Shown here piece after piece: positions 2,883 to 40,413 of a stretch of 64,000 nt of DNA; position 1 is the first letter of the stretch, and every line of letters starts with the position of its first letter. The notes under the pieces were generated by a model, which ran no database searches, was not told where the DNA came from, and was given only the letters and a program-made list of their open reading frames with translations. The translations under genes were made by a program, and so were the position numbers. Origin of the DNA: an uncultured bacterium (GTDB lineage: Bacteria > B130-G9); the NCBI GenBank assembly GCA_965372715.1, contig CBDVDH010000014.1:4298-68297 (forward strand), in the 5' to 3' direction.

Positions 2883-2990
2883 TGTAGGGGCGGTGTCTCA
2901 GACCCGCCCGCCTACACGAATCCCTGCGGATACGAGGCATCTTATGCGACCATCAATTCGAAAGGGCGGGTCTGAGACACCGCCCCTACA
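2883..2990. repeat. Perfect 27-bp inverted repeat pair, tgtaggggcggtgtctcagacccgccc at 2883-2909 and gggcgggtctgagacaccgcccctaca at 2964-2990, separated by 54 bp. It is REP/MITE-like.
   Basis: The two arms are exact reverse complements read directly from the sequence. Each arm is itself an imperfect palindrome of the GTAGGGCGG..CCGCCC family found elsewhere in the window. Confidence 0.85.
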
Positions 2991-3047
2991 CAACCGCAAC
3001 GACTTATGACCCAGCCTCTTCTAGCCTGCCATCGCCCAAGCCGCTGG

Positions 3048-17730: not shown

Positions 17731-18009
17731 ATGGAGGTCGCCCAACTCATGCCGAATCAGCAGTGGAGGCACGCTCGGGCGACCAATCCTGTTGAATCGC
17801 CCTTCGCGGGCGTTCGGTTGCGAACTGACGCGGCGACACGCTTCAAGAAGGTCGAGAATTCGACCGCTGTCTTATGGAAGATGTTGATGATAGTCGAGAG
17901 GAGCTTCAAAGGCGTGAAGGCCCCAGAACTTATGAAACGGGCCTCTGAAGGGGTAATCTATCTCGACGGGAGAGAAAAAGAGCCTGACAAAGAGGAACTA
18001 GCTGCCTAA
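17731..18009 (+). pseudogene. C-terminal fragment of an IS256/Mutator-family transposase.
   Basis: TNPVESPFAGVRLRTDAATRFKKVENSTAVLWKMLMIVERSF matches the conserved C-terminal TN.IESlN..iRrRTrvv.rFpnee.alrL block of this family; only about 90 aa remain. Confidence 0.5.
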
Positions 18010-18124
18010 CTTGAATTTACACACTTATTGAAGGGACCTCTGATAACGATTTAGTTAAGCTAACGTTTCAAATAACCGGCGGTAACAGAACGTAGTGGAA
18101 TTGCCGTCCATGTTGATTTGATGG

Positions 18125-19360: not shown

Positions 19361-19692
19361 ACGTAGCCAATAGGTATCCTGTAAAAAAGCGGTACGCGAC
19401 AGTCTTGTGCAATTATTGGCAGGACTTTGATATCTCTGGCTTTAAGCTGCTGATTCATCGCTAACTCAAGCTCCTTCTGAACCCAAGATGATTCAACAGA
19501 GGCAGGAGTTAAGACAGCAATGAGATAATGCATTTCCTCGATTGCTAATGCAATTCTCTTTAAAAGGGAGTCGCCAACCAAGAGTTCGGCTTCATCAAGC
19601 CAAACACGAACCCCACGGACAACTAGATCTCGTGCCAGTTTTCGTGCGAAAGGCTTATCTAAAGAAGTGTGGCTGATAAAGACGGACGACAT
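19315..19692 (-). CDS. Stand-alone TIR-domain protein.
   Basis: N-terminal FISHTSLDKPFARKLARDL..GVRVWLDE (betaA-alphaA of TIR). The SSWVQKELELA block carries the conserved Glu that is catalytic in TIR NADases. The protein is 125 aa and its 3' end overlaps the HEAT-repeat gene. Confidence 0.75.
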   Translation of the reverse strand: MSSVFISHTSLDKPFARKLARDLVVRGVRVWLDEAELLVGDSLLKRIALAIEEMHYLIAVLTPASVESSWVQKELELAMNQQLKARDIKVLPIIAQDCRVPLFYRIPIGYVWNQMLSMIVACRIY

Positions 19693-20006
19693 ACATTCCC
19701 CAATAACTCTACAGTTTTATCTGTGATCATTTCATACCTAAAATAATTAGATGGGCCCGCATAAGATGCAGGCTTCTTCGTTTCTGCCCCCATAAGACGC
19801 CTTTGGATATCCTGCCAATGCCGCGATAAGCCTTGCTGTTTGAGAGATTTGTTGTTTGTCCTTCCATTTAGCTCGGTGGTTTATGCGGGTCAGCATAAGA
19901 ACATCCTTCTCATAGTCCGTCGAGCTTACCCCAAAAGGTGTGGAAATTAGGTTAGGCGGTGTTTACCTTGGTTGGGAAGTAAACAACCTAACATGAAAGA
20001 AAGGAG

Positions 20007-20505: not shown

Positions 20506-20675
20506 TGGATATTTGTATGCACTTATTATGCAGTTCACACAATCACGGAACAGGAGAAATCGGCACTAAATGGGGCAGTTGTGGAATTGGGTGTAACCCG
20601 CAGATGATCAGCCGTTCCTCAACACACAAACGGCGGAAAGGCGGCTGTGGGGCTCCTAAATAGTGGTCGGGGCGG
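20506..20675. repeat. Right copy of the approximately 170-bp direct repeat. It abuts and overlaps by about 13 nt the 3' end of tRNA-Pro.
   Basis: See 16751-16925. Both copies end in a tggtYgggg-gcgg stretch, which in this copy is the 3' terminus of tRNA-Pro. Confidence 0.75.
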
Positions 20676-20739
20676 GCGGATTTGAACCGCCGACCCCCGG
20701 TTCCCAAAACCGGTGCGCTACCGGGCTGCGCTACGCCCC
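20663..20739 (-). tRNA. tRNA-Pro (anticodon TGG).
   Basis: Reverse complement reads CGGGGCG-TA-GCGC-AGCCCGGTA-GCGC-A-CCGGT-TTTGGGA-ACCGG-GGGTC-GGCGG-TTCAAAT-CCGCC-CGCCCCG-A-CCA. The cloverleaf folds with 7/4/5/5-bp stems, U8, G37, TTCAAAT T-loop and an encoded CCA. Confidence 0.9.
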
Positions 20740-20779
20740 GGAAAGAGTGGATGAAGCCTGCCAGGTCAAGCGACCTGTG

Positions 20780-26366: not shown

Positions 26367-26756
26367 ATGTTGGCAGTGCTCGTTGTTATCCATGTTTTCC
26401 TGTGTATCGCCCTTGTGGCTATCATCCTGTTTCAGGGCGGGAAGGGCGCCGATCTGGCGAGCGTTTTTGGCGGGGGCACTTCCGGGACAGCATTCGGCGT
26501 AACGGGCGCCGCGCCATTCATCGCCAAGGCGACCACGAGTGTTGCCGTCGGGTTCCTGGTGATGTGTGTCATTCTCTCGTATTTCTACACCCCGAGCGGC
26601 TCGGGTTCGGTGATACAGAAGCAAAGCGCAGCTCAAGAGAGCTCGCAGACGGCGCCGAGCTCTCCGGAAGAGGAACCAGCCGCGGCAGCTTCGGTCGGCA
26701 CCGTCGGGACCGGCGCAACTGTGGGGCAAGGCGAGGACTCTCCAGCAACGCCGTAG
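26367..26756 (+). CDS. secG: Preprotein translocase subunit SecG, with an Ala/Ser/Pro-rich C-terminal tail.
   Basis: Two TM helices with the FQGGKGADLASVFGGGTSGTAFG loop typical of SecG. Synteny gap-pgk-tpiA-secG-tRNA-Leu is conserved in many bacteria. Confidence 0.8.
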   Translation: MLAVLVVIHVFLCIALVAIILFQGGKGADLASVFGGGTSGTAFGVTGAAPFIAKATTSVAVGFLVMCVILSYFYTPSGSGSVIQKQSAAQESSQTAPSSPEEEPAAAASVGTVGTGATVGQGEDSPATP

Positions 26757-26868: not shown

Positions 26869-27010
26869 AAACGTGAATCGCCTCGGGGATTTGAGGAGCG
26901 CGCACAGCGATCGGTAGCTGGATTAGTCTCCGCCCGTTGGAAAACCGGAGGCGCCGGGCACCGAGGTTAGACAGACCGGCGGCTTGAGCTGCCGCAAAGA
27001 ACTTATCAAT

Positions 27011-27095
27011 GCCGAGATGGTGGAACTTGGTAGACACGCTGTCTTGAGGGGGCAGTGGGCGAGAGCCTGTGGGGGTTCGAGTCCCCCTCTCGGCA
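27011..27095 (+). tRNA. tRNA-Leu (anticodon GAG), class II with a long variable arm. CCA is not encoded.
   Basis: GCCGAGA-TG-GTG-GAACTTGGTA-GAC-ACG-CTGTC-TTGAGGG-GGCAG-long variable arm-GGGGG-TTCGAGT-CCCCC-TCTCGGC-A. All stems pair, with one G-U wobble. Confidence 0.9.
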
Positions 27096-27128
27096 TTACC
27101 CCCTCCTATCCCGGCAATTGCGCCGCAA

Positions 27129-27818
27129 CTACGAAATCCTGCACACACAACCGCAGGACCGCCCAGCGCCGGCGCCCGTCACCGCCCAGGCCAAGTTCCG
27201 CGAGCAAAAGAGGCTATGGGAGCGGAGGCTCTCCGCCCGTTGTTGTCGTGGGCACCCGTGCGTGTATTCCTTCGTGACCGTGCTCCAGTTTGAGTCATAT
27301 TCTTGAATGACGTCATCGCCGTCGTAAAAGAACTTACGCGTGCCGGATGAATCCGTCAAGCTGAGGCGCTTGCTGTCGGGGCCGTAGGTCATTGACTGGA
27401 TTGAGGCCATCCCCTCGGTGACGGATGTCAGCCTATCAAATGCGTCATACGCATAGCTGCGTGTTACGCCGCCCGTCGTCTTGCCAGCTATGTTTCCATT
27501 GTCATCGTGCGTGTAGCTGGTGCCGATGGTGCCTTCGGTCGATTGCGTCAGCCCATCTGCGGCGTTGTAGATATAGGACACGGTGGCGTCAGAGCTGCGC
27601 GTCCAGAGCGTCCTGTTGCCGTTATCGTCATACGTGAACGTGTCGGTATTGCCGGCGGGATACTCGACCTCGGTCAGCTGCCCCTCTGCGTCGTAGGTGT
27701 ATTCCGTCTCGCCGACGTTGAACTCGTCCTTCTCGGTGACCTGCCCGCAGGCGTCGAACGTGTATTCGATGCTCGACACCGTCGTCCCGTCGGACTTCAG
27801 GTTGTCAATCGCCCACAT
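27129..27818 (-). pseudogene. Truncated orphan Rhs/YD-repeat fragment (YD repeats only), ending abruptly next to tRNA-Leu.
   Basis: YD-repeat units (YTYDAEGQLTEV, YTYDDNGNRT, YAYDAFDRLTSV, FFYDGDDVIQEY) run up to KEYTHG and then diverge into non-homologous sequence. Nt 27297-27440 is about 93% identical to 29283-29426. Confidence 0.7.
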
Positions 27819-27824
27819 ACGGCA

Positions 27825-28127
27825 CTATTCCTGACGCATGGCACGTCGCACCTTGACCCACATAACCAGTATATGGCCGAATACAACGAGCATTACGACT
27901 ATCGCAAATATATGCCAACCTCGATGGCCTTCTCTAGACGAGACGAGCACACCCGACCATCCTAATGTCGCTGAAACAATCGCCAGATACCATGCCCACT
28001 TGCGTTTGGGCCCTGAGAAGAAGCGTATTCGCTCCCTTAGGTCCATGCGAACGGTTGTAGCAATGAGAAATATCACGGTGGCGCAGCCCACAATGTCCAA
28101 TAAAATACTAGCCCAGAAACTCAGCAT
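27825..28127 (-). CDS. Small integral membrane protein; candidate immunity protein for the 28265..29773 toxin tip.
   Basis: Three predicted TM helices (LLDIVGCATVIFLIATTV, WYLAIVSATLGWSGVLV, IFAIVVMLVVFGHILVMWV). It lies immediately downstream of an Rhs C-terminal cassette on the same strand. Confidence 0.4.
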   Translation of the reverse strand: MLSFWASILLDIVGCATVIFLIATTVRMDLRERIRFFSGPKRKWAWYLAIVSATLGWSGVLVSSREGHRGWHIFAIVVMLVVFGHILVMWVKVRRAMRQE

Positions 28128-28264
28128 TGCTCAAATCCTCCCGACTGCCGATGCAGCTGACAAATCAAATCCTTCCCTAACCGTGGGCCATGCAGAGGGG
28201 ACGCCAACGATTGCCCCTCTCTGCATTGCCGCGGCGGATTCCTCTATTCCCTCAAATGTGACCC

Positions 28265-29773
28265 CTAGAGCAGCACGGGCCCCACAGATCTGTGCTGCCC
28301 AAATGGTTCCGCGAGCCCGCCAAAGTCCTTACTTCCTTGCTTGGGATGGCCTGACCAATCCTCAATACAGCTGCCCGTACTGGAACCGCTGGGGTCTGTC
28401 AACCCGGCAGGTCGGCCACCGGTGACGAGACGGCCGCCCGCTTCAAGTCCTATGTTGTCGACCTCTCGCTGTAAGCCAGCCATATCTGCTTCCAAACCTG
28501 CCATCACACCGCTAAGCGCATCCCCGAACACGTCGCCCTGGAACTGGAACGCCGTACCATACATCATCTCCCCTAACAATCCGGGAGGCATTGACATACC
28601 GCCGGCTGCTTTTATTCCACATAGGCCCGCACCGATGCCGCAAGCGCCTGCTCCGATCAAAAGCAAAGATCCTCCACTCCCCATAATCGCCAGACAGCCG
28701 CCGATACCGACCAAGCAACTGCCAGTGACGCCCCACTTATTGATCGGCTTGGAAGAACGTATGGTAATGGATATTCTGAATCCAGTGCAATACCATATCC
28801 ACACGAAAGGGAAGTAACCGCAAATGGTCCCTATATCGCCTGCATCGGCTTGAACTGAGTGACTCGCCATCCCCATCGCATCCGTGTAGTTTGCGGGAGA
28901 GTTGCCACAGTAGGCATAGAGGCTTTGGAGTGAGAAGATGGGGTCGCGGCTGAAGAAGCGGCCGAGGGATTGATTGTAGTAGCGGGCGCGGTAGAAGTAG
29001 TTGCCCATCGCGCCGTCATAGACGCGGCCGGTGAAGCGGTACATGCAGTCCACCTGCCCGGAGTGATAGGTCGTGGTGGGTTCGCCGAAGGCGTCGTAGC
29101 TGTAGGTTGTTTTGAGGGTTTCGTTCTCGTCGAGGATGTCGATTATGGAGCCCAGGCGATCTTTCATGAGGTAGTAGGTGTCGCCGGCCTGCTTCGCTGT
29201 CTTGTCCGTCATCGAGAGGGGTTCGTCTATCCAGGGGCCGTGCGTGTATTCCTTCCTAACGGTTGACCAGTTGCTGTCGTATTCTTGAATGACGTCATCG
29301 CCGTCGTAAAAGAACTTACGCGTGCCGGATGAATCCGTCAAGCTGAGGCGCTTGCTGTCGGGGCCGTAGGTCATCGACTGGATTGAGCTCATTCCCTCGG
29401 TGACGGATGTCAGCCGATCAAACGCGTCGAACGCATAGCTGCGAGTCACGCCGCCAGTCGTCTTCCCCGTCATGTTTCCGTTGTTATCGTGAGTGTAGCT
29501 GGTCCCGACAGTGCCCTCGGTCGATTGCGTAAGCTGATCGGCGGCGTTGTAGATGTAGGACACGGTAGCGTCCGAGCTGCGTGCCCACTCCGTTCTGTTG
29601 CCGTTATCGTCGAACGTGAACGTGTCCGTGTTGCCCGCCGGATACGAGACCTCGGTCAGCGGATACATACTTAGGGAGCGAAGGAGGCCACGACCGTTCC
29701 GTTGAACTTCTTGATGACGATCATGTCTGCTTTCTTGTCCCAATAGACTAGCTGCTCTCCGTCCAGATCCCAA
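28265..29773 (-). CDS. Orphan Rhs/YD-repeat C-terminal cassette with a glycine-zipper membrane-active-like tip. The N-terminal boundary is uncertain.
   Basis: YD repeats, then the Rhs core-end motif YDAFGEPTTTYHSGQVDCMYRFTGRVYDGAMGNYFYRARYYNQSLGRFFSRDPI. The variable tip contains GSCLVGIGGCLAIMGSGGSLLLIGAGACGIGAGLCGIKAAGG (GxxxG zipper) and a conserved tail MPPGLLGEMM...DWSGHP. Confidence 0.75.
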   Translation of the reverse strand: MGSGRRAASLLGQESRHDRHQEVQRNGRGLLRSLSMYPLTEVSYPAGNTDTFTFDDNGNRTEWARSSDATVSYIYNAADQLTQSTEGTVGTSYTHDNNGNMTGKTTGGVTRSYAFDAFDRLTSVTEGMSSIQSMTYGPDSKRLSLTDSSGTRKFFYDGDDVIQEYDSNWSTVRKEYTHGPWIDEPLSMTDKTAKQAGDTYYLMKDRLGSIIDILDENETLKTTYSYDAFGEPTTTYHSGQVDCMYRFTGRVYDGAMGNYFYRARYYNQSLGRFFSRDPIFSLQSLYAYCGNSPANYTDAMGMASHSVQADAGDIGTICGYFPFVWIWYCTGFRISITIRSSKPINKWGVTGSCLVGIGGCLAIMGSGGSLLLIGAGACGIGAGLCGIKAAGGMSMPPGLLGEMMYGTAFQFQGDVFGDALSGVMAGLEADMAGLQREVDNIGLEAGGRLVTGGRPAGLTDPSGSSTGSCIEDWSGHPKQGSKDFGGLAEPFGQHRSVGPVLL

Positions 29774-30996
29774 TCAAAAGGCGTGTAGCCTCGGGCGTCT
29801 TTGGGGAAATCGAGGATCATGACTGGCTCGGGCAAGGTCAGTCTCGAGAGTAGCGTCCCTTCAAGATCATAGACAGCATAGCCAGATATGGCCAATGCGT
29901 CCTCCTCCCACTCACCCTTCAGTAGCCCGAATCTTTTGTTGTCACGGGAACACCGGATTCTTAAGGCGTGCACCTCCTTCAGCACCAGTTTTTTGTGTCC
30001 GGTACCTGTTTCGAGGCGCCAGAGAGTGCAGGACCGACTTGACAGGTGTGCGCCTTCCCGCGCAACGTAGAACATGAACCTCAGGTCGGGCGTAACTCCC
30101 GAAAGACCACGCGTACCTGCAACCAGAGTCTTGCCGGCCTGGACGAAGTCCGCGGTAGCTTCAGGACCTAAGGGATTGCCTCGCACGACGCCCACAATTG
30201 GCTCGGCGTCCGGCGGCAAAACGCAGCTGTCAACCGATACTGTATCCTCTGGCAACGGAATAAGCTTTTCGAGCGAGCCATCTTCCAGAGAGTATATCGC
30301 CACGTTGATACGACTATTCGATACCTTGTCAGGGGGCGCGGAGTGAACGCGCTCGAACTGGCCAGCGCCAGGCCTCTTCGCCAGAGATCCGGGAATGTGT
30401 TTTCCTTGGATGATGACCGGAAGTACTCCTGGAGACACGCCAACCTTGTAAACACAAATCCCGACATCCTCGGTTCTGCAAAGCAAAGTATCCAACAACG
30501 CGTTCTCGCTATCCAAGCAATAGATACACGGAAGGATGGAACCACCGACATCCTCCCCCCGCAGGAGCCGCTCGCACTCGTCACCGCGAACCCCATTCAG
30601 AAGAAAAAAGCGTGGGAAACCCGCATTGGAGAAGAACGGGAAGCACGGCATCCGGCCCGACCCAGCGATTTCTTGAAACCTGTGCACCGCTACGTCTGGT
30701 CCCGACCAAAAACAGAGCTGACCAAGCTCAATGGGATGCGCGGTGTCCCCATTAACCACGATGGTCCGGGTCCTCTTGAGATACGCAACGGAAGAACTTT
30801 CAGCAACAAAGGCGAGGTCTCGAACTCCTTGGCACCGTTTCTCTTCAGCGCCGATTCTGCCTGATCCACCGAGATGGCAACCTGATATCAGAAGGGCGCA
30901 GACCACCAGAAGGGCTATGACCGGCAATCTAGGTTTGTGTCTTCCTCGGAAGACCCTGGTCCATGATCGATCTCTCTGCATACTGTTGTCTCCCAA
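29671..30996 (-). CDS. Lipoprotein of unknown function; candidate immunity or accessory protein of the upstream Rhs cassette.
   Basis: Lipobox-like LLVVCALLISGC after a basic N-terminus; there are no recognisable catalytic motifs. The annotated 5' end overlaps the start region of the 28265..29773 ORF, so one of the two starts is likely internal. Confidence 0.4.
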   Translation of the reverse strand: MGDNSMQRDRSWTRVFRGRHKPRLPVIALLVVCALLISGCHLGGSGRIGAEEKRCQGVRDLAFVAESSSVAYLKRTRTIVVNGDTAHPIELGQLCFWSGPDVAVHRFQEIAGSGRMPCFPFFSNAGFPRFFLLNGVRGDECERLLRGEDVGGSILPCIYCLDSENALLDTLLCRTEDVGICVYKVGVSPGVLPVIIQGKHIPGSLAKRPGAGQFERVHSAPPDKVSNSRINVAIYSLEDGSLEKLIPLPEDTVSVDSCVLPPDAEPIVGVVRGNPLGPEATADFVQAGKTLVAGTRGLSGVTPDLRFMFYVAREGAHLSSRSCTLWRLETGTGHKKLVLKEVHALRIRCSRDNKRFGLLKGEWEEDALAISGYAVYDLEGTLLSRLTLPEPVMILDFPKDARGYTPFDWDLDGEQLVYWDKKADMIVIKKFNGTVVASFAP

Positions 30997-31115
30997 TATT
31001 AAAAGTTTGACGCCTTCATTCCTGGTTCCCGCATGAGACCCGGCGCAAGGCCGGCAGTTTGGGTCAGCGACTCAGCATTAGGGGCATCAAATTCAATGCA
31101 ACACTCGTGATCCTG

Positions 31116-32732
31116 CTACAGTATCAGGGGGCCTTCTGGGTCAGAAGCAATCGGAGGTGGTTCGACTAGCTTTCGCTTGCCACCCCCCTGATCGGGATGA
31201 CCACTCCAGTCGTTGATGCGGCTGCATCCAGTGCGATCCCCCAAGCCAGGGTCAGTGAATCCCGGACGCTCACCGCCTGTAAGGAGCCGGGTGTTGTCGA
31301 TCTCTCGCTGCAGAAATCGCATTTGTGCCTCAATTCCTGCCATCAGGCCGCGAAACACATCCTGGCCCGGGTTGCTCTGGCCCCCTTGGAGCATCTGGCC
31401 TATCATCATCTCCCCTATCAACCCAGGAGGCATTCCCATTCCATTGCACAAGCCTTCCCCGATAGCCACGCCAATGGTGAAGGCACCTGCCGCAGCCTTA
31501 TGTGGCTTCTTCTTGATTATGCCTGTTGCGAGGTCGGATGCCCCTTTCGCGGCGCCCCGGCCCTTAGCCCAGCCATATGCCTTTCGCCAACCCCACTCGA
31601 TCGCATCTGCAACGGGATGTTTCGGGCCTGAGCAGGGAAGAATTATCCACCACCACCAAGGGCCTGGCACCGCGACTGGGATGCCACCGTCAATGTCTCC
31701 GCCTTGGCTTGACAAGTTCAGATCATTGGAGCCGATTGAGCTGCCGGCGAGCATGCCAAATGGGTCGGTGAAGTTTTGGGGGGAGTTGTTGCAGTAGGCG
31801 TAGAGGGAGGAGAGGGACATGATGGGGTCGCGGGAGAAGAAGCGCCCGAGGGATTGGTTGTAGTAGCGGGCGCGGTAGAAGTAGGCGCCCATCGCTCCGT
31901 CATAGACACGGCCAGTGAAGCGATACATGCAGTCCACCTGCCCTGAGTGATACGTCGCGGTTGGCTCGCCGAACGCGTCGTAGCTGTAAGTGGTTTTGAG
32001 GGTCTCGTTCTCGTCCAAGATATCTATTATCGAGCCGAGGCGGTCCTTCATCAGGTAGTAGGTGTCGTCCGCCTGCTTCGCCGTCTTGTCAGTCATTGAG
32101 AGAGGCTCGTCAACCCAGGGCCCGTGCGTGTATTCTTTTCTAACGGTTGACCAGTTGGAGTCATATTCCTGAATCACATCGTTTCCGTCATAGAAGAACT
32201 TACGCGTGCCGGACGAGTCTGTCAAGCTGAGGCGCTTGCTGTCAGGGCCGTAGGTCATCGACTGGAGCGTCGTTTGCCCCTGGACGACGGAGCTCATCCG
32301 GTCGAATGGGTCGTAGTTGAACGTCTTGGTGACGCCGCCGGTCGTCTCACCGGTGAGGTTCCCGTTGTTGTCGTGGGAGTAACTCGTGCCGATTGTGCCC
32401 TCGGTCGATTGTGTCAGCTGGTCGGCGGAGTTGTAGATGTAGGACACGGTGGCGTTCGAGCTGCGTGCCCACTCCGTCCTGTTGCCGTTGTTGTCATACG
32501 TGAACGTGTCGGTATTCCCCGCTGGATAGGAGACTTCGGTCAGCTGCCCCTCGGCGTCGTAGCTGTATTCCGTCTCGCCAACGTTGTACTCGTCCTTCTC
32601 GGTGACCTGCCCGCAGGCGTCGAACGTGTATTCGATGCTCGACACAGTCGTCCCGTCCGACTTCAGGTTGTCAATCGCCCACATCCGGCCTCTCCTCAGC
32701 AAGGGCGAGTGTGTCTCCAATGACTCGGCCAA
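31116..32732 (-). CDS. Orphan Rhs/YD-repeat C-terminal cassette with a Trp-rich/glycine-rich tip that differs from 28265..29773.
   Basis: It starts in YD repeats (MWAIDNLKSDGTTVSSIEYTFDACGQ...), has the core-end motif ...YFYRARYYNQSLGRFFSRDPI, then PGPWWWWIILPC...GAFTIGVAIGEGLCNGMG and the shared MPPGLIGEMM...DWSGHP tail. Confidence 0.75.
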   Translation of the reverse strand: MAESLETHSPLLRRGRMWAIDNLKSDGTTVSSIEYTFDACGQVTEKDEYNVGETEYSYDAEGQLTEVSYPAGNTDTFTYDNNGNRTEWARSSNATVSYIYNSADQLTQSTEGTIGTSYSHDNNGNLTGETTGGVTKTFNYDPFDRMSSVVQGQTTLQSMTYGPDSKRLSLTDSSGTRKFFYDGNDVIQEYDSNWSTVRKEYTHGPWVDEPLSMTDKTAKQADDTYYLMKDRLGSIIDILDENETLKTTYSYDAFGEPTATYHSGQVDCMYRFTGRVYDGAMGAYFYRARYYNQSLGRFFSRDPIMSLSSLYAYCNNSPQNFTDPFGMLAGSSIGSNDLNLSSQGGDIDGGIPVAVPGPWWWWIILPCSGPKHPVADAIEWGWRKAYGWAKGRGAAKGASDLATGIIKKKPHKAAAGAFTIGVAIGEGLCNGMGMPPGLIGEMMIGQMLQGGQSNPGQDVFRGLMAGIEAQMRFLQREIDNTRLLTGGERPGFTDPGLGDRTGCSRINDWSGHPDQGGGKRKLVEPPPIASDPEGPLIL

Positions 32733-32768
32733 ACCGATGCCATTCAGGAACTATCGCGCGCAACCCAA

Positions 32769-33065
32769 TCACTGGTTCTCTTCTTGAGATTCGTGTTTCT
32801 TGATTTCTTCGTTGTATTGACACAGCAGCAATCTCAGCATCATCAAATACAAGACTGGGAAACCGATTACACCCACTGCGACCACCACATACACGGCCAG
32901 ACCGAAGTCTCTCGGATGACCGCGGCTCATCATACTCACTAGAACCATAACTCCCAGCCCAAACACTATAGTAGCAATAACACTGGATGAAAATGCCGCG
33001 ACTGAGCCCACGGACCGTTGTACCCACGCCCGGGGGTTTCTAAATGGATTGATGAAGATTTTCAT
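32769..33065 (-). CDS. Small membrane protein; candidate immunity protein.
   Basis: Two or three TM helices (VAAFSSSVIATIVFGLGVMVLVSMM, LAVYVVVAVGVIGFPVLYLMML). It lies between two Rhs cassettes on the same strand. Confidence 0.4.
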   Translation of the reverse strand: MKIFINPFRNPRAWVQRSVGSVAAFSSSVIATIVFGLGVMVLVSMMSRGHPRDFGLAVYVVVAVGVIGFPVLYLMMLRLLLCQYNEEIKKHESQEENQ

Positions 33066-33128
33066 GCGCTCATTTCCTTGTAAGTCATGAATGTGATTCC
33101 CCGACGCGTCACCTGTTGTGTCATTCTG

Positions 33129-34175
33129 TTATGGCCATCTGGGGTTATGGGGATCGAATTCGGAGCCCTTGGGATCACCTTCGCCTGCATGATCTTCCTC
33201 ACCGCCAATAGGATTGTCCATAATGAGGACGGCAACACCAACCCCGGCGATGGCAATGCCGCCTGTCGTACTAATTCCCAAGATACCAGCCACGAAACCA
33301 GCTACGGTCAAGGCCGCCCCAAGAACACTCCAGGAGCTGGTTTCCTCTTCCGCCTCCTCTTCCTTCACCCATACCGTCTCCCCATCATCCGCTACGTATT
33401 TCTCGGCACCATCCTCGTCCTTCTCGCCGGTGCTTGTATAGGTTTTGCCATTGATCACTATCTTATCGCCTTTCTTCGAGCACGGCAGTCCCGTCATCCT
33501 GCGATGCCAAATTAGGCCAAACCCCATTTCGCTGGGGACGAACTCATCTCCGCCGATAGAGAGCCCTAACATCCCGAACGGGTCCTTGAAGTTCGTGGGG
33601 CTGTTGTTGCAGTAGGCATAGAGGGATTGGAGTGAGAAGATGGGATCGCGGGAGAAGAAGCGGCCGAGCGATTGGTTGTCGTAGCGGGCTCGGTAGAAGT
33701 AGGCGCCCATTGCGCCGTCATAGACGCGGCCGGTGAAGCGATACATGCAATCGACCTGGCCGCTGTGGTGGGTTGCGGTTGGCTCGCCGAACGCGTCGTA
33801 GCTATATGTTGTCTTGAGCGTCTCGTTCTCGTCGAGGATGTTGATTATGGAGCCGAGGCGATCTTTCATTAGGTAGTAGGTGTCGCCGGCCTCTCTTGCA
33901 GTCTTGTCGGTCATGGAGAGTGGCTCATCGATCCAGGGCCCGTGCGTGTATTCTTTGGTCACGGTGCTCCAGTTTGAGTCATATTCCTGAATCACGTCGT
34001 TTCCATCGTAGAAGAACTTGCGCGTGCCGGACGCGTCTGTCAAGCTGAGGCGCTTGCTGTCGGGGCCGTAGGTCATTGATTGGAGCGTCGATTGGCCCTG
34101 GACGACGGAGGTCATCCGGTTGAACGCGTCGTAGTTGAACGTCTTGGTTACGCCGCCGGTCGTCTGGGTTGTCAT
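33129..34175 (-). CDS. Orphan Rhs/YD-repeat C-terminal cassette with an acidic and glycine-zipper tip.
   Basis: Core-end motif ...YFYRARYDNQSLGRFFSRDPI, followed by the unique tip ...EEEAEEETSSWSVLGAALTVAGFVAGILGISTTGGIAIAGVGVAVLIMDNPIGGEEDHAGEGD. Confidence 0.75.
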   Translation of the reverse strand: MTTQTTGGVTKTFNYDAFNRMTSVVQGQSTLQSMTYGPDSKRLSLTDASGTRKFFYDGNDVIQEYDSNWSTVTKEYTHGPWIDEPLSMTDKTAREAGDTYYLMKDRLGSIINILDENETLKTTYSYDAFGEPTATHHSGQVDCMYRFTGRVYDGAMGAYFYRARYDNQSLGRFFSRDPIFSLQSLYAYCNNSPTNFKDPFGMLGLSIGGDEFVPSEMGFGLIWHRRMTGLPCSKKGDKIVINGKTYTSTGEKDEDGAEKYVADDGETVWVKEEEAEEETSSWSVLGAALTVAGFVAGILGISTTGGIAIAGVGVAVLIMDNPIGGEEDHAGEGDPKGSEFDPHNPRWP

Positions 34176-34277
34176 GTTGCCGTCCCTAGCCTGACGCGAA
34201 CCGGGAAATGAGATTTTTGCAGCGTATGGCTGCCTCCGCTTGATGGAGCCGTCCGAATGCGCGTAAACGACGGGCGC

Positions 34278-35537
34278 CTATTTGCCCGCCGTCGGTGGCG
34301 ATGGCTTCTTTGCGTCCTTGAGTATCTTCCCGACACCGTATGTCGCCTTCTTCAAGACCTTAGCCTTATTGGTCTTGAAGTCATACCTGATTATCCTCCA
34401 TGGTCTTGGTGGCGGGATGTGATAGATCAGGCAATCCTCATGATCGAAGTAATGCCAACAGTCAAGTGTTGTACACGGCGAAAGATCGCCGCTGGTAACG
34501 ACGGCCCTTCGTGCTACAACGTTCAGGGTCCGATCGGTTGTGGTAAGGTGCAGTGTCTCTCCGTTGCAGCTGGCGAAAACGAGGCGATCGCCGGGAACGG
34601 ACCAACCCATACGGGTCTGGTTCGATTTGCCTGGCATATCAGGTACGGCGGTCGGCCCAGCAATTTGGGCTATTCGGCCGCTCGAAAGAGCCCAAATCGA
34701 GACGAGGGACCGCTTGGCTCCCGGGGCCTTGTGAAACGCCGAGAAATAATTGCGGTCGCAGGAAAAAGCAAGAGTGTCGGCATCCAATGGGTCTTCGTCC
34801 GTTAGGTAATGACTGGCGGCTCCCTTTGAAAGGTCTGACAGGTTGAAGGTAACAGCATAGATGCGTGGCCCACCCTTGGGCTCGCTCCTGAACTCTCTCA
34901 TCAGAAGGCCAATGTGGCTATCGGAAGTGTCCAGCAATGTACCCACCAAGCTCGAGCCCCTGGGGACGGAATAAGGCGCCTCGGCTAAGATCCTCCCGTC
35001 CGGACGTGCAATCCTGAATAGCCAACGCTCAAAAGGGCCATCCTCCTCGGCAGAGCGCTCCTCTGCTTTGAATACGAACGCCCATCCCTCGAGAGAAGCA
35101 AGATAAGAGGAGACACACGCAGGAAAAGGCACGCTCGGGAGCTCTATTCTATACTTCGACACGGCCTCCCTTTTTCCTGTTTGCAGAACCTCAAACCAGA
35201 AGCGCGGTATGCGCTCCACTCGATAAATCATAACACCCAAGTCTCTCGGTGAAGCCTCCTCAATTATGGCCAGAAGGCTGTACTCGGGGACGATCTGCTC
35301 ATTTTCCCGGTCGAGCAAAACCACCCACTCATCGCATCCAACCAAATAGAGCTTCGCTTGAAATTCTACCTTCGCCTCCTCGGGATACTGTGATGGAGCA
35401 GGCCATTTCGTTTCCCAAATCACTAGATTGCCCGACTCTGTCGGGCTTGAGAAGATGAAAGACCCGGAATACTTCCGCTCCGCCGCCAAAACCTGGGGTA
35501 GAAGCAGCAACAGAATGAGTAAGCTACGACCAATCAT
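34278..35537 (-). CDS. Secreted protein of unknown function; candidate immunity or accessory protein.
   Basis: Signal peptide MIGRSLLILLLLLPQVLAAE; no recognisable catalytic motifs. It lies downstream of the 35600..36463 cassette. Confidence 0.4.
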   Translation of the reverse strand: MIGRSLLILLLLLPQVLAAERKYSGSFIFSSPTESGNLVIWETKWPAPSQYPEEAKVEFQAKLYLVGCDEWVVLLDRENEQIVPEYSLLAIIEEASPRDLGVMIYRVERIPRFWFEVLQTGKREAVSKYRIELPSVPFPACVSSYLASLEGWAFVFKAEERSAEEDGPFERWLFRIARPDGRILAEAPYSVPRGSSLVGTLLDTSDSHIGLLMREFRSEPKGGPRIYAVTFNLSDLSKGAASHYLTDEDPLDADTLAFSCDRNYFSAFHKAPGAKRSLVSIWALSSGRIAQIAGPTAVPDMPGKSNQTRMGWSVPGDRLVFASCNGETLHLTTTDRTLNVVARRAVVTSGDLSPCTTLDCWHYFDHEDCLIYHIPPPRPWRIIRYDFKTNKAKVLKKATYGVGKILKDAKKPSPPTAGK

Positions 35538-35599
35538 GTCTCTATATGCTCCTTTGCTGCAAAAGCGTGTTGTTCCACCAACAATCGGGAATTCTATCT

Positions 35600-36463
35600 T
35601 CAGCCCTCCGGAAATTCAAGATCGGGACGTCGAAAGGCTATCGCTGGGTCTGGCGGCGGCGGGAGGTCCCCATTGAGGGCCCAAAGCATGCAAGCCCCTG
35701 GACACCACAACCGCACTGCCCACCCGTAGTCCTCCGGGCTCAGATTGTCCCACGCGCAACTGGTGCAGCACCTCAGACAACAGGACAGCTTTTTCCCAAA
35801 ATCGGTGTGCTGCGCACATTTCTCGGCGAGGCATTTGATAACCCAAACATAGAACTTGCCCCAATCTGAGACCTTGCCAACAACTGCACGCATACGTTCG
35901 ACCTCAATGGGGCCGAAGAAGGCCTCGATTGGGTCCACCAAAGGCTCGTACTCGGGGCGGCCCGTCAGCGATTCGTCTGACAGCCCCGTCGGGTCGGTGA
36001 AGTTTGCCGGCGAGTTGTTGCAGTATGCGTAGAGGGATTGCAGCGAGAAGATGGGATCGCGGCAGAAGAAGCGGCCCAATGATTGGTTGTAATACCTCGC
36101 CCGATAGAAGTAGTTGCCCATCGCGCCATCATAGACGCGGCCTGTGAAGCGGTACATGCAATCAACTTGGCCGCTGTGGTGGGTGATTGTGGGGTCGCCG
36201 AAGGCGTCGTAGCTGTAGGTTGTTTTGAGGGTTTCGTTCTCGTCGAGGATGTCGATTATCGAGCCGAGGCGATCTTTCATTAGGTAGTAGGTGTCGCCGG
36301 CCTCCCTTGCAGTCTTGTCCGTCATCGGCGGAGAGCCTCCGCTCCCGAGACATGGGCCGAGGCGCCGCGTTCGCGTCGCTTCGGCTGTGGAGGCGAGCTC
36401 GGAACGTGCGAGCCGTCCGGTTTCATACGCAGGTAGAGAAAGGTATCCGAGTGCCGTGGGCAC
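35600..36463 (-). CDS. Orphan Rhs C-terminal cassette with a Cys-rich tip. It is degraded at the 5' end, where frame changes join it to fragment 36322..36594.
   Basis: ...MTDKTAREAGDTYYLMKDRLGS...YFYRARYYNQSLGRFFCRDPI, then the tip ...CLAEKCAQHTDFGKKLSCCLRCCTSCAWDN...LWCPGACMLW. Confidence 0.65.
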   Translation of the reverse strand: MPTALGYLSLPAYETGRLARSELASTAEATRTRRLGPCLGSGGSPPMTDKTAREAGDTYYLMKDRLGSIIDILDENETLKTTYSYDAFGDPTITHHSGQVDCMYRFTGRVYDGAMGNYFYRARYYNQSLGRFFCRDPIFSLQSLYAYCNNSPANFTDPTGLSDESLTGRPEYEPLVDPIEAFFGPIEVERMRAVVGKVSDWGKFYVWVIKCLAEKCAQHTDFGKKLSCCLRCCTSCAWDNLSPEDYGWAVRLWCPGACMLWALNGDLPPPPDPAIAFRRPDLEFPEG

Positions 36464-36594
36464 CTGTCGGGAACGTAGGTCATGGATTGGAGCGTCGATT
36501 GGCCCTGGACGACGGAGGTCATCCGGTCAAAGCAGTCGTAAGCGTAGCTGCGCATCGTCACGGCCTCCCTAAGGCTTGACGAGGGCCCATACAC
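36322..36594 (-). pseudogene. Short Rhs/YD fragment (SYAYDCFDRMTSVVQGQSTLQSMTY) in a different frame from the following cassette.
   Basis: Matches the YD-repeat region of the other cassettes, then runs out of frame. Confidence 0.5.
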
Positions 36595-36826
36595 AAAAAC
36601 AAAAAACCAGTATAATCTTATCGCGCTCGAGAAGGGATGTCAAATGTTTTTTGCACGCTTTTTTTGACGATTTCGCGGACACTGCTTTTTCTCGGGACAT
36701 TCAAGATTCGGATATGAATACGTTTCTGTGCAGCGGAACTGCGCCTGAATAGGATAAGGCCGCGCGTCAAGTCGCCTCGCGAGGAGGGGAGCCGCGCCCT
36801 GGATGGGACACGGCCCCGGAGTATCT

Positions 36827-38623
36827 TCAGCCCAGGTCGCGCATGTATTCGTGATAGAGCTTCGCGTATTCGCCGCCCAGGGCAAGGAGTTCTTTGTGCG
36901 TGCCTCTTTCCTTTATTAGGCCATCGCCGATTACGAGGACGAGGTCCGCGTGGCGAACCGTCGAGAGGCGGTGCGCGACGACGAACGACGTACGGCCCCG
37001 CATCAGTCGGCCCATCGCCTCCTGCAACGTCTGTTCGATTATCGTATCGACTGAGGAGGTGGCCTCGTCCAGGATGAGTATCCTGGGGTCCGCGATGAAC
37101 GCCCGCGTGAAGCATATCAGCTGCCGCTCGCCCTGCGAAAGCCCCGCGCCTCGTTCGTGGACTTCCGTCTGATAGCCGTCCGAGAGCTTCATTATCGACT
37201 CGTGGGCGCCGAGTGCCTTCGCCGCCTGAACGACCTGCTCCTCCGAGACGTCGGGATTCGCGAACCTCAAGTTCTCCATGACAGTCCCAGTGAATAGGAA
37301 GCTCTCCTGAAGCACGATTCCCATCTGTTCGTGCAGCGAATTGAGTGTAACGTCCTTTACGTCAAAACCGTCAATCGACACTCGGCCCTTCTGCGCTTCA
37401 TAAAACCTCGGTATGAGAGCGACAGTGGAGCTCTTGCCGCCGCCAGTAGGGCCTACGAGCGCGATCGTCTGGCCGGCCTCGGCCCTGAATGAGATGTCCT
37501 TCAGAATCCACTCCCGCTTGCCATCGACGTCATAGGTGAAATAGACATCCTTGAACTCGACCTTGCCCTTGATTTTGGGGATCGGTCTGGCGTTGTCGCG
37601 GTCCTTGACCTCCGGCTCAGTGTCGAGCAGCTGGAATATCCGCTCTGCCGCGGCCGTGGCCGACAGCGCGCTGTTGTATAGCCAAGTCAGTCCTTCAAGC
37701 GGCCAGAAGAATAGGCCCAAAAGGAGCATGAACTCCGGAAGCACACCTATCGTGAGCTCGCCTTGAACGATTAAGCTTGCCCCATAGAGCAGAATGATGC
37801 CCGTGGCTGTGGCGAACATCATGTCGATGAAGGGGAAGTACGAGTTCCACACTCTCGAGGCGCCCATCATGTTGCGAATGTATTGGTCATTTAGCTTACG
37901 GAAAGTCATCGCGTTTCTGGCCTCCCGCACGAATGCCTGGACGACTCGCACGCCGTTGATATTCTCGGCGAGGTTCGCTGTGATGCGCGAGATGCTCTCC
38001 CTCGTTCTTCGGTACGCAATCAGGCCGTATTTGTGGAACAAGATGCTCGCAACCACGAGAGGAGGCATAGTCACAACAATCGCAAGGAACAGCTTCGCGC
38101 TGCTAAGGCACATAAAAATCGTAACCCCTACGAGGCTCAGGATGCAGCTCGTGAATTCAAGCAGCCCCCACGTGACGATCTCGTCGAGTGATTCGATGTC
38201 CCTGTCGGCTCTTGCGATGATCCTTCCCGCCTTGGTCTTGTCGAAGTATTTCATCGACAGTTCTTGGACGTGTGTGAACACCGCATTCCTCATGTCGTTA
38301 AGCGCCCTCTGTCCCCTCGATGAGGCGAGCTTTATCTGGTAGAGCGCGTTCAGCCATCTGAAGAGCGAGGTCAGGGCGTACAGCCCCGCGATTAGCGCGA
38401 GGCCAGCGACGTCTCCTTTGACGATGTGGTCGTCTATACCTATCCTAACGAGTTTCGGGCCGACGAGCCCGCACGATACCCACAACACTTCCATCACCAG
38501 AACGGCGATAATTGCACGTTTATATGGCGCGAGGAATCCGAGCATACGTCTGAGCACCTTCTTCGAGAACGGCGCGCGCGCCAGCTCTTCCTGGAGTGCT
38601 ACGTCATCTATTGCCGTCGTCAT
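36827..38623 (-). CDS. ABC transporter permease/ATP-binding protein (type I exporter, MsbA-like), second half of a heterodimer.
   Basis: Six-TM N-domain, then Walker A GPTGGGKSS, signature LSQGERQ, Walker B ILILDEATSSVD and the H-loop. There is a 4-nt overlap with the upstream paralog. Confidence 0.85.
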   Translation of the reverse strand: MTTAIDDVALQEELARAPFSKKVLRRMLGFLAPYKRAIIAVLVMEVLWVSCGLVGPKLVRIGIDDHIVKGDVAGLALIAGLYALTSLFRWLNALYQIKLASSRGQRALNDMRNAVFTHVQELSMKYFDKTKAGRIIARADRDIESLDEIVTWGLLEFTSCILSLVGVTIFMCLSSAKLFLAIVVTMPPLVVASILFHKYGLIAYRRTRESISRITANLAENINGVRVVQAFVREARNAMTFRKLNDQYIRNMMGASRVWNSYFPFIDMMFATATGIILLYGASLIVQGELTIGVLPEFMLLLGLFFWPLEGLTWLYNSALSATAAAERIFQLLDTEPEVKDRDNARPIPKIKGKVEFKDVYFTYDVDGKREWILKDISFRAEAGQTIALVGPTGGGKSSTVALIPRFYEAQKGRVSIDGFDVKDVTLNSLHEQMGIVLQESFLFTGTVMENLRFANPDVSEEQVVQAAKALGAHESIMKLSDGYQTEVHERGAGLSQGERQLICFTRAFIADPRILILDEATSSVDTIIEQTLQEAMGRLMRGRTSFVVAHRLSTVRHADLVLVIGDGLIKERGTHKELLALGGEYAKLYHEYMRDLG

Positions 38624-40413
38624 GCGATCACATCCTCCGCGACCTGGTTATTCAGGCTCTGCCCGTCGTAAATCGTTCGGTAAATGCCTTCAGTTTGTAA
38701 TAGACCCTCATGCGTCCCGGTTTGCACGATCTTGCCTTCGTCCAGGACGATTATCTTGTCAGCGTGCTGAACCGTCGAGATGCGCTGCGAGATGATGAAG
38801 GTCGTCTTCTGTTTCGAAAGCTCCCGAAGCGCCTCGTGTATGCCGCGTTCGGTATAGGAGTCGACGCTTGCGGTGGCGTCATCAAGCACCAACAGCCGCG
38901 GGTCAGAGACGATGGCCCTGGCTATCGATACGCGTTGCTTCTGGCCGCCGCTGAGCGTAACGCCGCGCTCCCCGATTATCGTGTCGTAGCCGTTCTCAAG
39001 GTCCTCAACGAACGCGTGCGCGCCCGCGGCCTTCGCATACCTCATTATGTCTTCGCTGGACGCCTCAGGACTTCCGTAGCGAATGTTATCGGCCACCGAC
39101 GCGGAGAAGAGGAATGTATCCTGAAACACGACTCCAACCTCGCCCCTCAGCGACTTGAGCGTGACGCTGGTTATGTCTTGACCATCGATCAGGACGCGGC
39201 CCTCGCCCGGATCATGGAAACGCCCAAGAAGCGAGATCAGCGAGCTCTTACCGCACCCTGTTCTGCCAACAATCGCGACTGTCTGACCCGCACTAACAGA
39301 GAAGCTTATATCATTGAGCACTCTCTGTTCCCCAAGCGTGAGCGAGACGTTCTCGAAGGTTACCTGCCCCGGGCCATCGGGGAGAGGTTCGGCGTCTTCC
39401 GCGTCCATTATCCCTTCCTTCTCGTCCAGCAACTTGAATATCTTCTCGGCGCTCGCTGACGCCTGCTGCGTGAAATCGACCATTCGCCCGACCGCCCTCA
39501 TCCTGTCGGCGATGCTCCGGAGGTAGAGCAAACACGCCGCAATCGCGCCCAAGGACACCGCGCCTCTCATGACAAGCACGCCGCCGAAGAAAAGCGTCAG
39601 GGGGATGCTGAGTCTGAAAATGAACATCGCGAACGGGACACTCTCCGCCCAAACCGCGATCGCCTTGATCATCTGCCGCGTGAAGACCTGGGCGCGGCCG
39701 CCGAACTTCTCAATCTCTCGCCCTTCCTGCCCAAATGCACGGACGACCCTCGCGCCTGCAATGTTCTCTTGAAGGACGGTCGTAACGTCGTCATACTTGT
39801 CGCTGGCGTCCATGAACATCGGGCGGATTCTTCGCGCGAACTTGATCATCAGATACGCAGTCGGAATAATCATCGAAAGCGCCGCGGCGCCGAGCCTATA
39901 GTCCCAGATGAGAATGATCACTGAGGCGCCGATGACGTACGACAGGATCTCAGGTCCCATGAAGACGGCGGTCGCAAGGAACATCCTGATCTTGTCAACG
40001 TCTCTCGTCGATCGCGCGATCAGCTCGCCGGACGACGCATTGCCATGAAACTCCAGCGACAGCCGCTGCACCTTCTCGTACTCCCTGCACCTCAAATCCG
40101 AGATAACGCCGTGAACGATCGCGGTCTGCGTGAGGCCTCGACGGAAACGAAACAGGTCCCGCAGTAATGAGGCGCCGACGTACAGCAGGACGTAGGACAG
40201 CACAAGCGGTATGATCTGCGCCTCATCCGCCCCCGCCCTAACCATCCGCGTAACGTGGTTGATCGCCCAGGCAACAACGACCGGTCGCAATAGATCAAAC
40301 CCCAGACCGGTATAGAGTAGGACGTAGAGCTGCACCGCTTTGCCCTTATAGGGCTTGACATACTTCAGAAGCCGCCAGATGACCTTTAGTGACGGCTTTG
40401 CTTGCTCAACCAA
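38620..40413 (-). CDS. ABC transporter permease/ATP-binding protein (type I exporter), first half of a heterodimer.
   Basis: TM domain plus Walker A GRTGCGKSS, signature LSGGQKQR and Walker B LLVLDDATASVD. Confidence 0.85.
   Translation of the reverse strand: MVEQAKPSLKVIWRLLKYVKPYKGKAVQLYVLLYTGLGFDLLRPVVVAWAINHVTRMVRAGADEAQIIPLVLSYVLLYVGASLLRDLFRFRRGLTQTAIVHGVISDLRCREYEKVQRLSLEFHGNASSGELIARSTRDVDKIRMFLATAVFMGPEILSYVIGASVIILIWDYRLGAAALSMIIPTAYLMIKFARRIRPMFMDASDKYDDVTTVLQENIAGARVVRAFGQEGREIEKFGGRAQVFTRQMIKAIAVWAESVPFAMFIFRLSIPLTLFFGGVLVMRGAVSLGAIAACLLYLRSIADRMRAVGRMVDFTQQASASAEKIFKLLDEKEGIMDAEDAEPLPDGPGQVTFENVSLTLGEQRVLNDISFSVSAGQTVAIVGRTGCGKSSLISLLGRFHDPGEGRVLIDGQDITSVTLKSLRGEVGVVFQDTFLFSASVADNIRYGSPEASSEDIMRYAKAAGAHAFVEDLENGYDTIIGERGVTLSGGQKQRVSIARAIVSDPRLLVLDDATASVDSYTERGIHEALRELSKQKTTFIISQRISTVQHADKIIVLDEGKIVQTGTHEGLLQTEGIYRTIYDGQSLNNQVAEDVIA

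Follow-up and report, generated by a model that had tools for sequence, protein, structure and literature searches.

We analysed a 64-kb stretch of contig CBDVDH010000014.1 (assembly GCA_965372715.1) from an uncultured bacterium, hereafter the window, and focus here on a tract of rhs gene fragments between 27.1 and 36.6 kb. All substantial open reading frames (ORFs) of this tract lie on the minus strand, and together they form an array of 5'-truncated rhs fragments, here called cassettes, that alternate with partner ORFs. Read along transcription, an ABC half-transporter pair is followed by a 230-nt gap, a short rhs fragment (C5up), a repeat element and cassette C5, then by the ORF S419, cassette C4, M98, cassette C3, L441, cassette C2, M100 and cassette C1, and finally by a remnant of the repeat element and a tRNA gene. 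The intergenic gaps within the array, all between genes of the same strand, measure 2-137 nt, and a promoter-like site stands at the array head: a sigma-70-like TTGACA-17-TAAGAT at 36615-36643 (minus strand), called by consensus match only, which agrees with the consensus at 10 of 12 positions, is the best match of the region and lies in the 230-nt gap between the ABC genes and the array.

The upstream ABC genes (36827-40413, minus strand) encode half-transporters of 598 and 597 residues with Pfam ABC_membrane and ABC_tran domains, at 40413-38620 and 38623-36827, respectively. At the opposite end, the plus-strand genes gap, pgk, tpiA and secG (26367-26756; Pfam SecG, E 5e-17) lead up to tRNA-Leu(GAG) (27010-27096, plus strand; called by ARAGORN and scoring 46.9 bits with the Rfam tRNA model), which adjoins the truncated end of the array. 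The array has a GC content of 0.55-0.59, the same as its flanks.

We searched genome and metagenome collections with the conserved core and recovered 18 related loci, the named ones being Candidatus Coatesbacteria metagenome-assembled genomes (MAGs). Related arrays are present in independent assemblies (L001, L002, L003, L005, L014 and L024) and often end at contig edges. Comparing flank synteny by ORF-level blastp, we found that L005 and L014, loci from two metagenomes, have orthologues of the ABC pair (84-87% identity) ahead of an array with different cassettes, the far flank being unrelated to that of the window and devoid of a tRNA. The gene directly upstream of the array is hence an ABC half-transporter in all three loci, not a full-length rhs. 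As the same pair precedes the arrays of L005 and L014, the conserved anchor is the ABC-exporter side, and, judged by this synteny, the array occupies a conserved chromosomal site after the ABC operon, with a cassette content that differs in a relative. Other arrays (L010, L023 and L024) have neighbours different from the ABC pair.

Rhs cassettes and their truncation

As listed, the cassette ORFs extend over 27129-27818 (C1), 28265-29773 (C2), 31116-32732 (C3), 33129-34175 (C4) and 35600-36463 (C5), all on the minus strand. RHS repeats, tested with Pfam PF05593 and also TIGR01643, were detected with PF05593 in C1 (E 6e-17), C2 (6e-14), C3 (2e-20) and C4 (1e-8), the match in C5 falling below threshold (0.019). 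The core domain TIGR03696 (NCBIfam Rhs_assc_core, cut-off 32.5 bits) was recovered in C2 (61.0 bits), C3 (65.6), C4 (60.1) and C5 (66.6), with no match in C1. Indeed, C1 is a YD-repeat fragment truncated at both ends (27254-27818), with 188 homologous codons from MWAIDN to KEYTHG and neither core end nor tip; its ORF continues past the end of homology (KEYTHG, about 27254) through unrelated sequence to 27129, and the fragment is 91% identical to C2 and 85% to C3. As C1 lacks core end and tip, the tipped cassettes number four (C2-C5), not five.

The longest cassette, C3 (31116-32732), retains 327 core residues from a native GRMWAIDN, while C4 (33129-34175; P0009) encodes 348 residues. C2 (28265-29668; P0003) encodes 467 residues from an ATG at 29668, 2 nt past the L441 stop codon. 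C5 (35600-36325) is a 241-residue cassette that starts at the native Met of MTDKTA, 10 nt past a GGAGG of the repeat element, and the 137-nt element severs it from C5up (36464-36555, minus strand), a short rhs fragment (MRSYAYD..QSMTYVPD) at the array head that corresponds to reference positions 503-531. The tipped cassettes retain the last 115-327 residues of the core, and none has a complete shell of more than 1000 residues with an N-terminal plug or delivery region. At the boundary between core and tip, the motif PxxxxDPxGL is perfect in C5 (SPANFTDPTGL), reads DPFGML in C3 and C4, and deviates in C2 (DAMGM).

Core identity between the cassettes spans 66-96% and is mosaic: one block pairs C1 with C2 and C3 with C4, and a different block links C1 with C3 (96% identity). 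Just beyond the core end it drops from 70-92% to 30-55%. A direct-repeat analysis yielded four families of 3-5 copies each, with 68-90% identity to the reference copy. A first-pass annotation of the window, made by a model from the sequence alone, had described five cassettes that each begin inside the YD-repeat region and pass through the core-end motif; the TIGR03696 matches bear out the latter for C2-C5, C1 stops at KEYTHG, and the ORFs are fragments as claimed, with the amendment that C5 is interrupted by the element. The same annotation paired 27297-27440 with 29283-29426 as a stretch of about 93% identity. At these coordinates the identity is 30%, and the pairing is restored by a shift of 4 nt, 27297-27440 being 95.8% identical to 29279-29422 at an offset of 1982 nt. 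Its remaining statements on the setting, that the window is devoid of a full-length rhs and that an ABC exporter pair lies upstream, are borne out, the latter by the Pfam matches. No secretion system was found within the 64-kb window.

The cassettes are true fragments, since their sequence is internal to longer Rhs proteins of relatives. In L007, an Rhs ORF of at least 1285 residues combines DUF6531, twelve RHS-repeat stretches and a YD-shell, and residues 15-329 of C3 match its residues 885-1199 at 79% identity; in P0001 (864 residues) and P0006 (692 residues) the GRMWAIDN at which C1 and C3 start sits inside continuous YD repeats. Mapped on P0001, the 5' boundaries fall at residue 382 (C3), 383 (C1), 431 (C2), 490 (C4) and 580 (C5), equivalent to window positions 32684, 27818, 29659, 34160 and 36325, respectively. 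Across the loci, truncation points recur at reference residues of about 382, 404, 431, 490, 510, 526, 580 and 594 of the Rhs core. These recurrent points correspond to the YDxxGR[LM]-type motif of the YD repeats, and often to native Met codons.

The tRNA-side end can be compared with L024 (positions 1-4955; JGI 3300033141), which, at 82% identity over 1386 nt, is colinear with the window segment running from the C2 tail by way of M100 into C1. There, the counterpart of C1 (P0002, 438 residues) is intact, with core end and tip, and is followed by a 268-residue Rce1-like/CPBP membrane protein and then by another cassette. With the counterpart intact in L024, the tRNA-side end of the window array looks like a deletion scar.

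Tips and partner genes

The four tips fall into distinct types. The C2 tip (28265-28867, minus strand) comprises a W-rich segment, a 37-residue glycine-zipper hydrophobic segment (residues 51-87, transmembrane-like (TM-like) by hydropathy) and a tail of the form MPPGL..DWSGHP. The C3 tip (31116-31751, minus strand) shares the W-rich segment and the tail, and its Gly-rich segment is degenerate. Hydropathy reveals no TM-like window in the C3 and C5 tips, for C3 because the zipper is interrupted by KKK. C2 and C3 tips form one family, C3 being 47% identical to C2 and 40% to the tip in L024, and within this family (C2, C3, P0015, P0121 and L024) the tail, MPPGL..LQREIDN..DWSGHP, is the best-conserved part; the zipper segment is variable and, in C3, degenerate. 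The C4 tip (33129-33569, minus strand) is built from an LPC motif, a KGDKIVINGKTYTSTGE module, an acidic linker and a 45-residue Gly/Ala-rich hydrophobic segment (TM-like residues 79-123, hydropathy maximum 2.10), and its N-terminal module is common to tips of L005, L008 and P0014. The C5 tip is Cys-rich, with 9 Cys in 126 residues. In the Rhs clade of the window, a Gly/Ala-rich TM-like window is present in 10 of the 29 distinct complete tips, so membrane-type tips are common in this clade.

Four partner ORFs, all on the minus strand, separate the cassettes. M100 (27825-28127) has 100 residues with 2-3 hydrophobic segments and is the putative immunity partner of C2, while M98 (32769-33065), of 98 residues with two hydrophobic segments, is that of C4. 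S419 (34278-35537) is predicted to be secreted, with a signal-like N-terminus and 7 Cys, and is the putative immunity partner of C5. L441 (29671-30996), downstream of C3, is a predicted lipoprotein of 441 residues with the lipobox ISGC and 13 Cys. By hydropathy, the predicted compartments agree within pairs: the hydrophobic C2 and C4 tips stand beside M100 and M98 with their TM-like segments, and the Cys-rich C5 tip beside S419 with its signal-like N-terminus. The tip strings that the first-pass annotation had quoted (two glycine-zipper, one Trp-rich and one Cys-rich) are all present, its glycine-zipper reading agrees with the Gly/Ala-rich TM-like segments of the C2 and C4 tips, the tail said to be shared by two cassettes is that of C2 and C3, and the small membrane proteins, lipoprotein and secreted protein it placed between cassettes correspond to M100 and M98, L441 and S419.

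Tips and partners were found to recur together in other metagenomes. L024 carries a C2-type tip of 61% identity followed by an M100-type orthologue of 61% identity, and L001 combines a C5-type cassette (59.9% over 227 residues, core and tip) with an S419-type protein (61%). The recurrence of the C2-M100 and C5-S419 pairs at about 60% identity each supports toxin/immunity modules. Similarly, L005 and L007 have a tip in common (64%), and in each locus the same TPR protein (89%) comes next. An ORF of 120 residues in L001, located after a hydrophobic tip, is 39% identical to M98 over 46 residues. Proteins resembling L441 (26-47% identity) come after cassettes in L001, L003, L005 and L022, and one homologue, in L021, occurs with no cassette. 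In L010 and L024, cassettes are followed by Rce1-like/CPBP membrane proteases; CPBP-type membrane proteases are classically linked to bacteriocin self-immunity. Taken together, this comparative pattern fits, and supports the notion that the partner genes show the behaviour expected of cognate immunity genes.

Profile and sequence searches of Pfam, NCBIfam, PADLOC and PDB returned nothing meaningful for tips or partners, and M100 has no family in Pfam, NCBIfam or PADLOC. Of 1.84 billion representative proteins searched with a profile of the C2, C3 and P0015 tips, one was a real match, and it too is a cassette of this clade. Among 5.8 billion proteins, L441 has 4 homologues, both source-named ones from Candidatus Coatesbacteria MAGs, and S419 has 2. 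As far as these searches go, the families of tips and partners are confined to this lineage. S419 and L441 were also considered as one family, which we rejected (hhalign probability 0.1).

Some additional features of tips and partners were recorded. A Pro-Cys dipeptide, mostly as G/N-L-P-C, occurs in the first 70 residues past DPxGL in 16 of 31 otherwise unrelated tips, typically at about residue 28, as compared to an expectation of 2.2 by shuffling (maximum 8 in 2000 shuffles). In the window it is found in the C3 tip (about 31635) and the C4 tip (about 33480), and 14 further tips of relatives have it; it may represent a pre-toxin linker, with a conserved Cys, that these tips share. A tip end of DP..G plus an aromatic or hydrophobic residue is also found in many cases. 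Opposite the 3' part of S419, the plus strand carries a 182-residue antisense ORF (34257-34805) whose counterpart, antisense to the L001 homologue, is 76% identical, as compared to 61% for the S419 proteins overall; conservation in the 3' third of the S419 gene thus clearly exceeds that of the gene as a whole.

A hairpin-ended repeat at cassette junctions

The most unusual feature is the hairpin-ended repeat, which is also found at cassette junctions of relatives. Its full copy (36327-36463, minus strand; nhmmer E 1e-34) is 137 nt long and takes the place of about 47 cassette codons. A partial copy at the end of C1 homology (27212-27258, no strand assigned) consists of an inverted end (GGGCGGAGAGCCTCCGCTCCC) plus GTGCCCAC; it includes an exact 20-21-mer, inverted relative to 36326-36346, and nhmmer matches it partially at 27212-27237. 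The resulting KEYTHG|GTGCCCACG junction recurs in L010 at about 8650. By nhmmer these are the only two copies in the window, both in the array, and both array ends are degraded in association with the element.

In the 210 kb of window and related loci taken together, nhmmer retrieved 35 matches. The element spans 106-173 nt and is GC-rich, with conserved terminal hairpins (5' GTGCC-CAC-GGCAC and 3' GCGGAG-GCT-CTCCGC) around a variable interior, the stems GTGCC/GGCAC and GCGGAG/CTCCGC being maintained with one compensatory change. All 14 full-length copies have the cassette-sense orientation, and copies with inverted ends occur in L002 and L005. Loci that bear the element are L002, L003, L005, L006, L010, L011, L013, L014, L016, L017 and L019. 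Its 3' end abuts the Rhs core at recurrent points, before MTYGPD, MTDKTA or (YL)MKDR, and its 5' side is often preceded by KEYTHG. At 12 of 17 junctions between element and rhs cassette, C5 among them, a native in-frame Met follows 10-15 nt past the GGAGG of the element. The junctions are accompanied by local deletions of 11-47 codons. In L010 (6161-6444; P0010), the element is read through in frame, giving an 87-residue insertion in a source-annotated cassette ORF.

Miniature hairpin-ended repeat elements include miniature inverted-repeat transposable elements (MITEs), repetitive extragenic palindromic (REP) sequences and IS200/IS605-derived palindrome-associated transposable elements (PATEs). 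The junction element resembles these in its hairpin ends, variable interior, many copies and occasional inverted ends, but differs in its concentration in rhs arrays, its single orientation, its association with local deletions, and the absence of an identified transposase or target-site duplication. No transposase was identified, although no genome-wide search was aimed at one, and no target-site duplication was seen, the flanks often reading ATGA. Visual inspection of the element showed no conserved promoter motif. With no Rfam family and a folding z-score of -0.66, no better than shuffled sequence, a structured RNA is not supported and was rejected.

We read the element as a repeat of the MITE/PATE-like type, one that causes damage and rearrangement in the arrays. 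The spacing between GGAGG and Met codons leads us to the hypothesis that it may also supply translation signals. A further step, that it is a dedicated coloniser of rhs arrays which turns silent orphans into translatable short toxins, or mediates cassette deletion and capture, appears unlikely to us; if true, however, the element would be a mobile 'start-signal donor' for polymorphic toxin reservoirs.

A proposed toxin and immunity reservoir weighed against alternatives

We consider it likely, with good confidence, that the tract is an orphan-only array of rhs C-terminal toxin (rhs-CT) and immunity modules in a Coatesbacteria-like genome. Each module would keep the last 115-327 codons of the Rhs shell through PxxxxDPxG[LM], followed by a polymorphic tip and a protecting gene. 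Modules would have accumulated via recombination in the repeated core sequence, by C-terminal displacement or cassette exchange. The partner genes would be expressed and confer immunity against kin, with the toxin parts serving as a reserve that becomes deliverable only once recombined onto a full-length rhs elsewhere in the genome.

Mechanistically, the C2 and C4 tips may enter the cytoplasmic membrane of the target via a Gly/Ala-zipper helical hairpin and dissipate the membrane potential, M100 and M98 blocking this action; that these two tips are membrane-inserting depolarising toxins is plausible, and by analogy with characterised systems the best mechanistic reading. The Cys-rich C5 tip would act outside the cytoplasm and be neutralised by exported S419, and C3 would represent a diverged relative of C2 with a degenerate zipper, beside the lipoprotein L441.

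Such an array is of an already known kind. Arrays of orphan rhs-CT/rhsI and cdiA-CT/cdiI modules have been described in Enterobacteriaceae and Dickeya (Poole et al. 2011, PMC3150448), where the orphan rhs-CT arrays were interpreted as a reservoir of toxin and immunity genes. Shared with the rhs-CT/rhsI arrays are 5'-truncated cores that keep the DPxGL boundary, unrelated tips each with its own downstream small ORF, and homology to full-length genes in other strains. In contrast to them, no full-length rhs lies directly upstream in the window or its syntenic relatives, the host belongs to an uncultured candidate phylum, two of the partners are predicted to be large and exported (419 and 441 residues), and a repeat element occupies many junctions. 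The array is accordingly distinctive in host lineage, in its lineage-restricted tips and partners, in its orphan-only layout at a conserved site and in the junction repeat.

For the membrane-active tips, the closest precedent is Tse5 (PA2684) of Pseudomonas aeruginosa, a toxin that forms pores, is encased in an Rhs shell and has Tsi5 as its membrane-bound immunity protein (PMC9637101, PMC10684867, PMC12744356); this toxin's structure by cryo-electron microscopy has been published (PMC10684867). C2/M100 and C4/M98 share its predicted logic, a hydrophobic C-terminal domain behind the Rhs core end with a membrane-bound partner. They differ in that no PAAR or type VI secretion system (T6SS) context was seen at the array and that the C2 and C4 tips have no phmmer match at E up to 10 among all PDB chain sequences, a set presumed to include Tse5. 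Outside Rhs proteins, EsxX and TspA are membrane-depolarising glycine-zipper toxins of type VII secretion systems, the extracellular toxicity of EsxX being blocked by polytopic membrane proteins (PMC12744356), and the ionophore toxins of contact-dependent inhibition (CDI) are likewise membrane-depolarising, with a glycine zipper and polytopic membrane immunity proteins (PMC11630599). Common to them and the tips here are repeated small-xxx-small motifs in long hydrophobic helices, polytopic membrane immunity proteins, and high polymorphism of toxin and immunity protein; the carriers are LXG or CdiA proteins as opposed to Rhs here, and no homology was detected. The claim of the first-pass annotation that membrane-depolarising tips are uncommon among characterised Rhs tips is thus overstated, given the precedent of Tse5 and the share of TM-like tips in this clade.

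Several observations weigh against the reservoir interpretation. No full-length rhs adjoins the array in L005 or L014 either, so the classical layout of a main gene followed by orphans is not seen. The C2 boundary, DAMGM instead of DPxGL, might impair self-cleavage, and although C2 and C3 belong to one tip family, their partners, M100 and L441, are not related. No relative of known function was detected for the tips and partners, the TM-like and signal-peptide calls are simple hydropathy heuristics, and AlphaFold2 models of S419 and L441, from 3- and 4-sequence alignments, have mean predicted local distance difference test (pLDDT) scores of 32.5 and 31.6 and are unusable.

Possible, though doubtful, is that the short cassettes of core plug and tip are translated in the cell that carries them, as toxin-antitoxin-like addiction or growth-control modules, a function that would be compatible with a reservoir. 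Each of the four tipped cassettes is an intact ORF whose start codon lies at the 5' junction or close to it: besides the starts of C2, C3 and C5 given above, and the frequent Met past the element GGAGG in relatives, the ATG of C1 follows 6 nt past the M100 stop. Orphan Rhs toxins of Salmonella Typhimurium, expressed internally, act as type II toxin-antitoxin modules (PMC7043789), and such a delivery-less orphan, translated from internal signals, is a possible parallel for the start codons at cassette junctions, although the putative ribosome-binding site here comes from the repeat element rather than from core sequence. We raise selection for Met at the 5' junctions as a hypothesis. However, the truncation points also fall on YD-motif positions (YDxxGR[LM]) and could alternatively be explained by recombination at repeat microhomology, which does without start-codon selection, and a hydrophobic pore-former made in the cytoplasm would require a membrane partner that acts from inside.

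Rather doubtful is an alternative on the C2/C3 family, in which the glycine zipper would be a device for membrane translocation and the conserved tail the cytoplasmic toxic domain. Congruent with this, the tail is better conserved than the variable zipper, and the T6SS DNase Tde1 needs a glycine zipper for translocation (PMC10240207). The tail, however, matches no Pfam, PDB or other family and has no obvious catalytic motif, and C2 is partnered by a small membrane protein, the usual kind of partner of channel-forming toxins (PMC12744356).

We hold it to be quite improbable that the array is a decaying graveyard of pseudogenes without present function. Decay could be read from C1, which has lost core end, tip and partner, from C5, split by the element, from the degenerate C3 zipper and from the DAMGM of C2, and no full-length rhs is adjacent. 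Nevertheless, the C2, C3 and C4 ORFs of about 1-1.6 kb are still open, all four partner genes are intact, and tip/partner pairs are kept undisrupted at about 60% identity in other assemblies.

Very unlikely is an origin as a genomic island integrated at tRNA-Leu, which the first-pass annotation had implied by placing the insertion directly after the tRNA gene. Only 33 nt separate the array ORF end at 27129 from the tRNA 3' end at 27096, but no integrase or other mobility gene lies between 27.1 and 36.8 kb, the window contains no second copy of the tRNA 3' end, composition shows no anomaly relative to the flanks, and the anchor in L005 and L014 is the ABC pair with no tRNA, the tRNA-side end here being a truncation and not an attachment site. 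A tRNA-targeted island is therefore not supported and was rejected, on GC content and the lack of a tRNA 3'-end repeat in particular. Assembly artefacts, from collapsed or chimeric repeats, are equally hard to credit: core repeats of about 1 kb with 66-96% identity are long enough to mislead a metagenome assembler, and related arrays frequently stop at contig edges, yet unique tip and partner sequence flanks every junction, the C2-M100-C1 segment is colinear with the independent JGI contig L024, and L005 and L014 yield the same array from two metagenomes. Finally, that the short Rhs-tip proteins are bacteriocin-like substrates of the ABC pair, which lies upstream on the same strand in the window, L005 and L014, is extremely improbable and was rejected as unsupported, as the transporters are generic MsbA-like half-transporters with no C39 peptidase domain that reach no curated NCBIfam cut-off, no membrane-fusion protein was seen, the cassettes lack leader peptides, and the arrays of L010, L023 and L024 have other neighbours.

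Elsewhere in the window, GC content dips to 0.39-0.45, as compared to about 0.57 in the remainder, at 18001-20000, with a 411-residue HEAT-repeat protein beside tRNA-Pro (20664-20740), and at 59001-60000, which contains an FkbM-type methyltransferase. Right-handed beta-helix/DUF1565 domains are found in four large proteins (156-2615 on the plus strand; 49492-51123, 51629-53353 and 53877-55829 on the minus strand), three of them clustered and one also with Chlamydia PMP repeats, which may be surface or secreted proteins. A 767-residue protein with two-component-regulator-propeller (Reg_prop) repeats is encoded at 44707-47010 (minus strand), and a relative of 30% identity in L010 (3889-6108) is the immediate upstream neighbour of a cassette ORF, which it overlaps.

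The general picture of polymorphic toxin systems is unchanged by this array. The findings rather extend orphan Rhs toxin/immunity arrays to an uncultured candidate phylum (Coatesbacteria-like), in an Rhs clade where about one third of the tips are predicted to be membrane-active and where tip and partner families have essentially no outside relatives. The junction repeat provides a testable idea on how silent cassettes may be expressed or rearranged. How arrays made up of orphans alone are kept and put to use is a question posed by this array, which persists and turns over with no full-length gene next to it.

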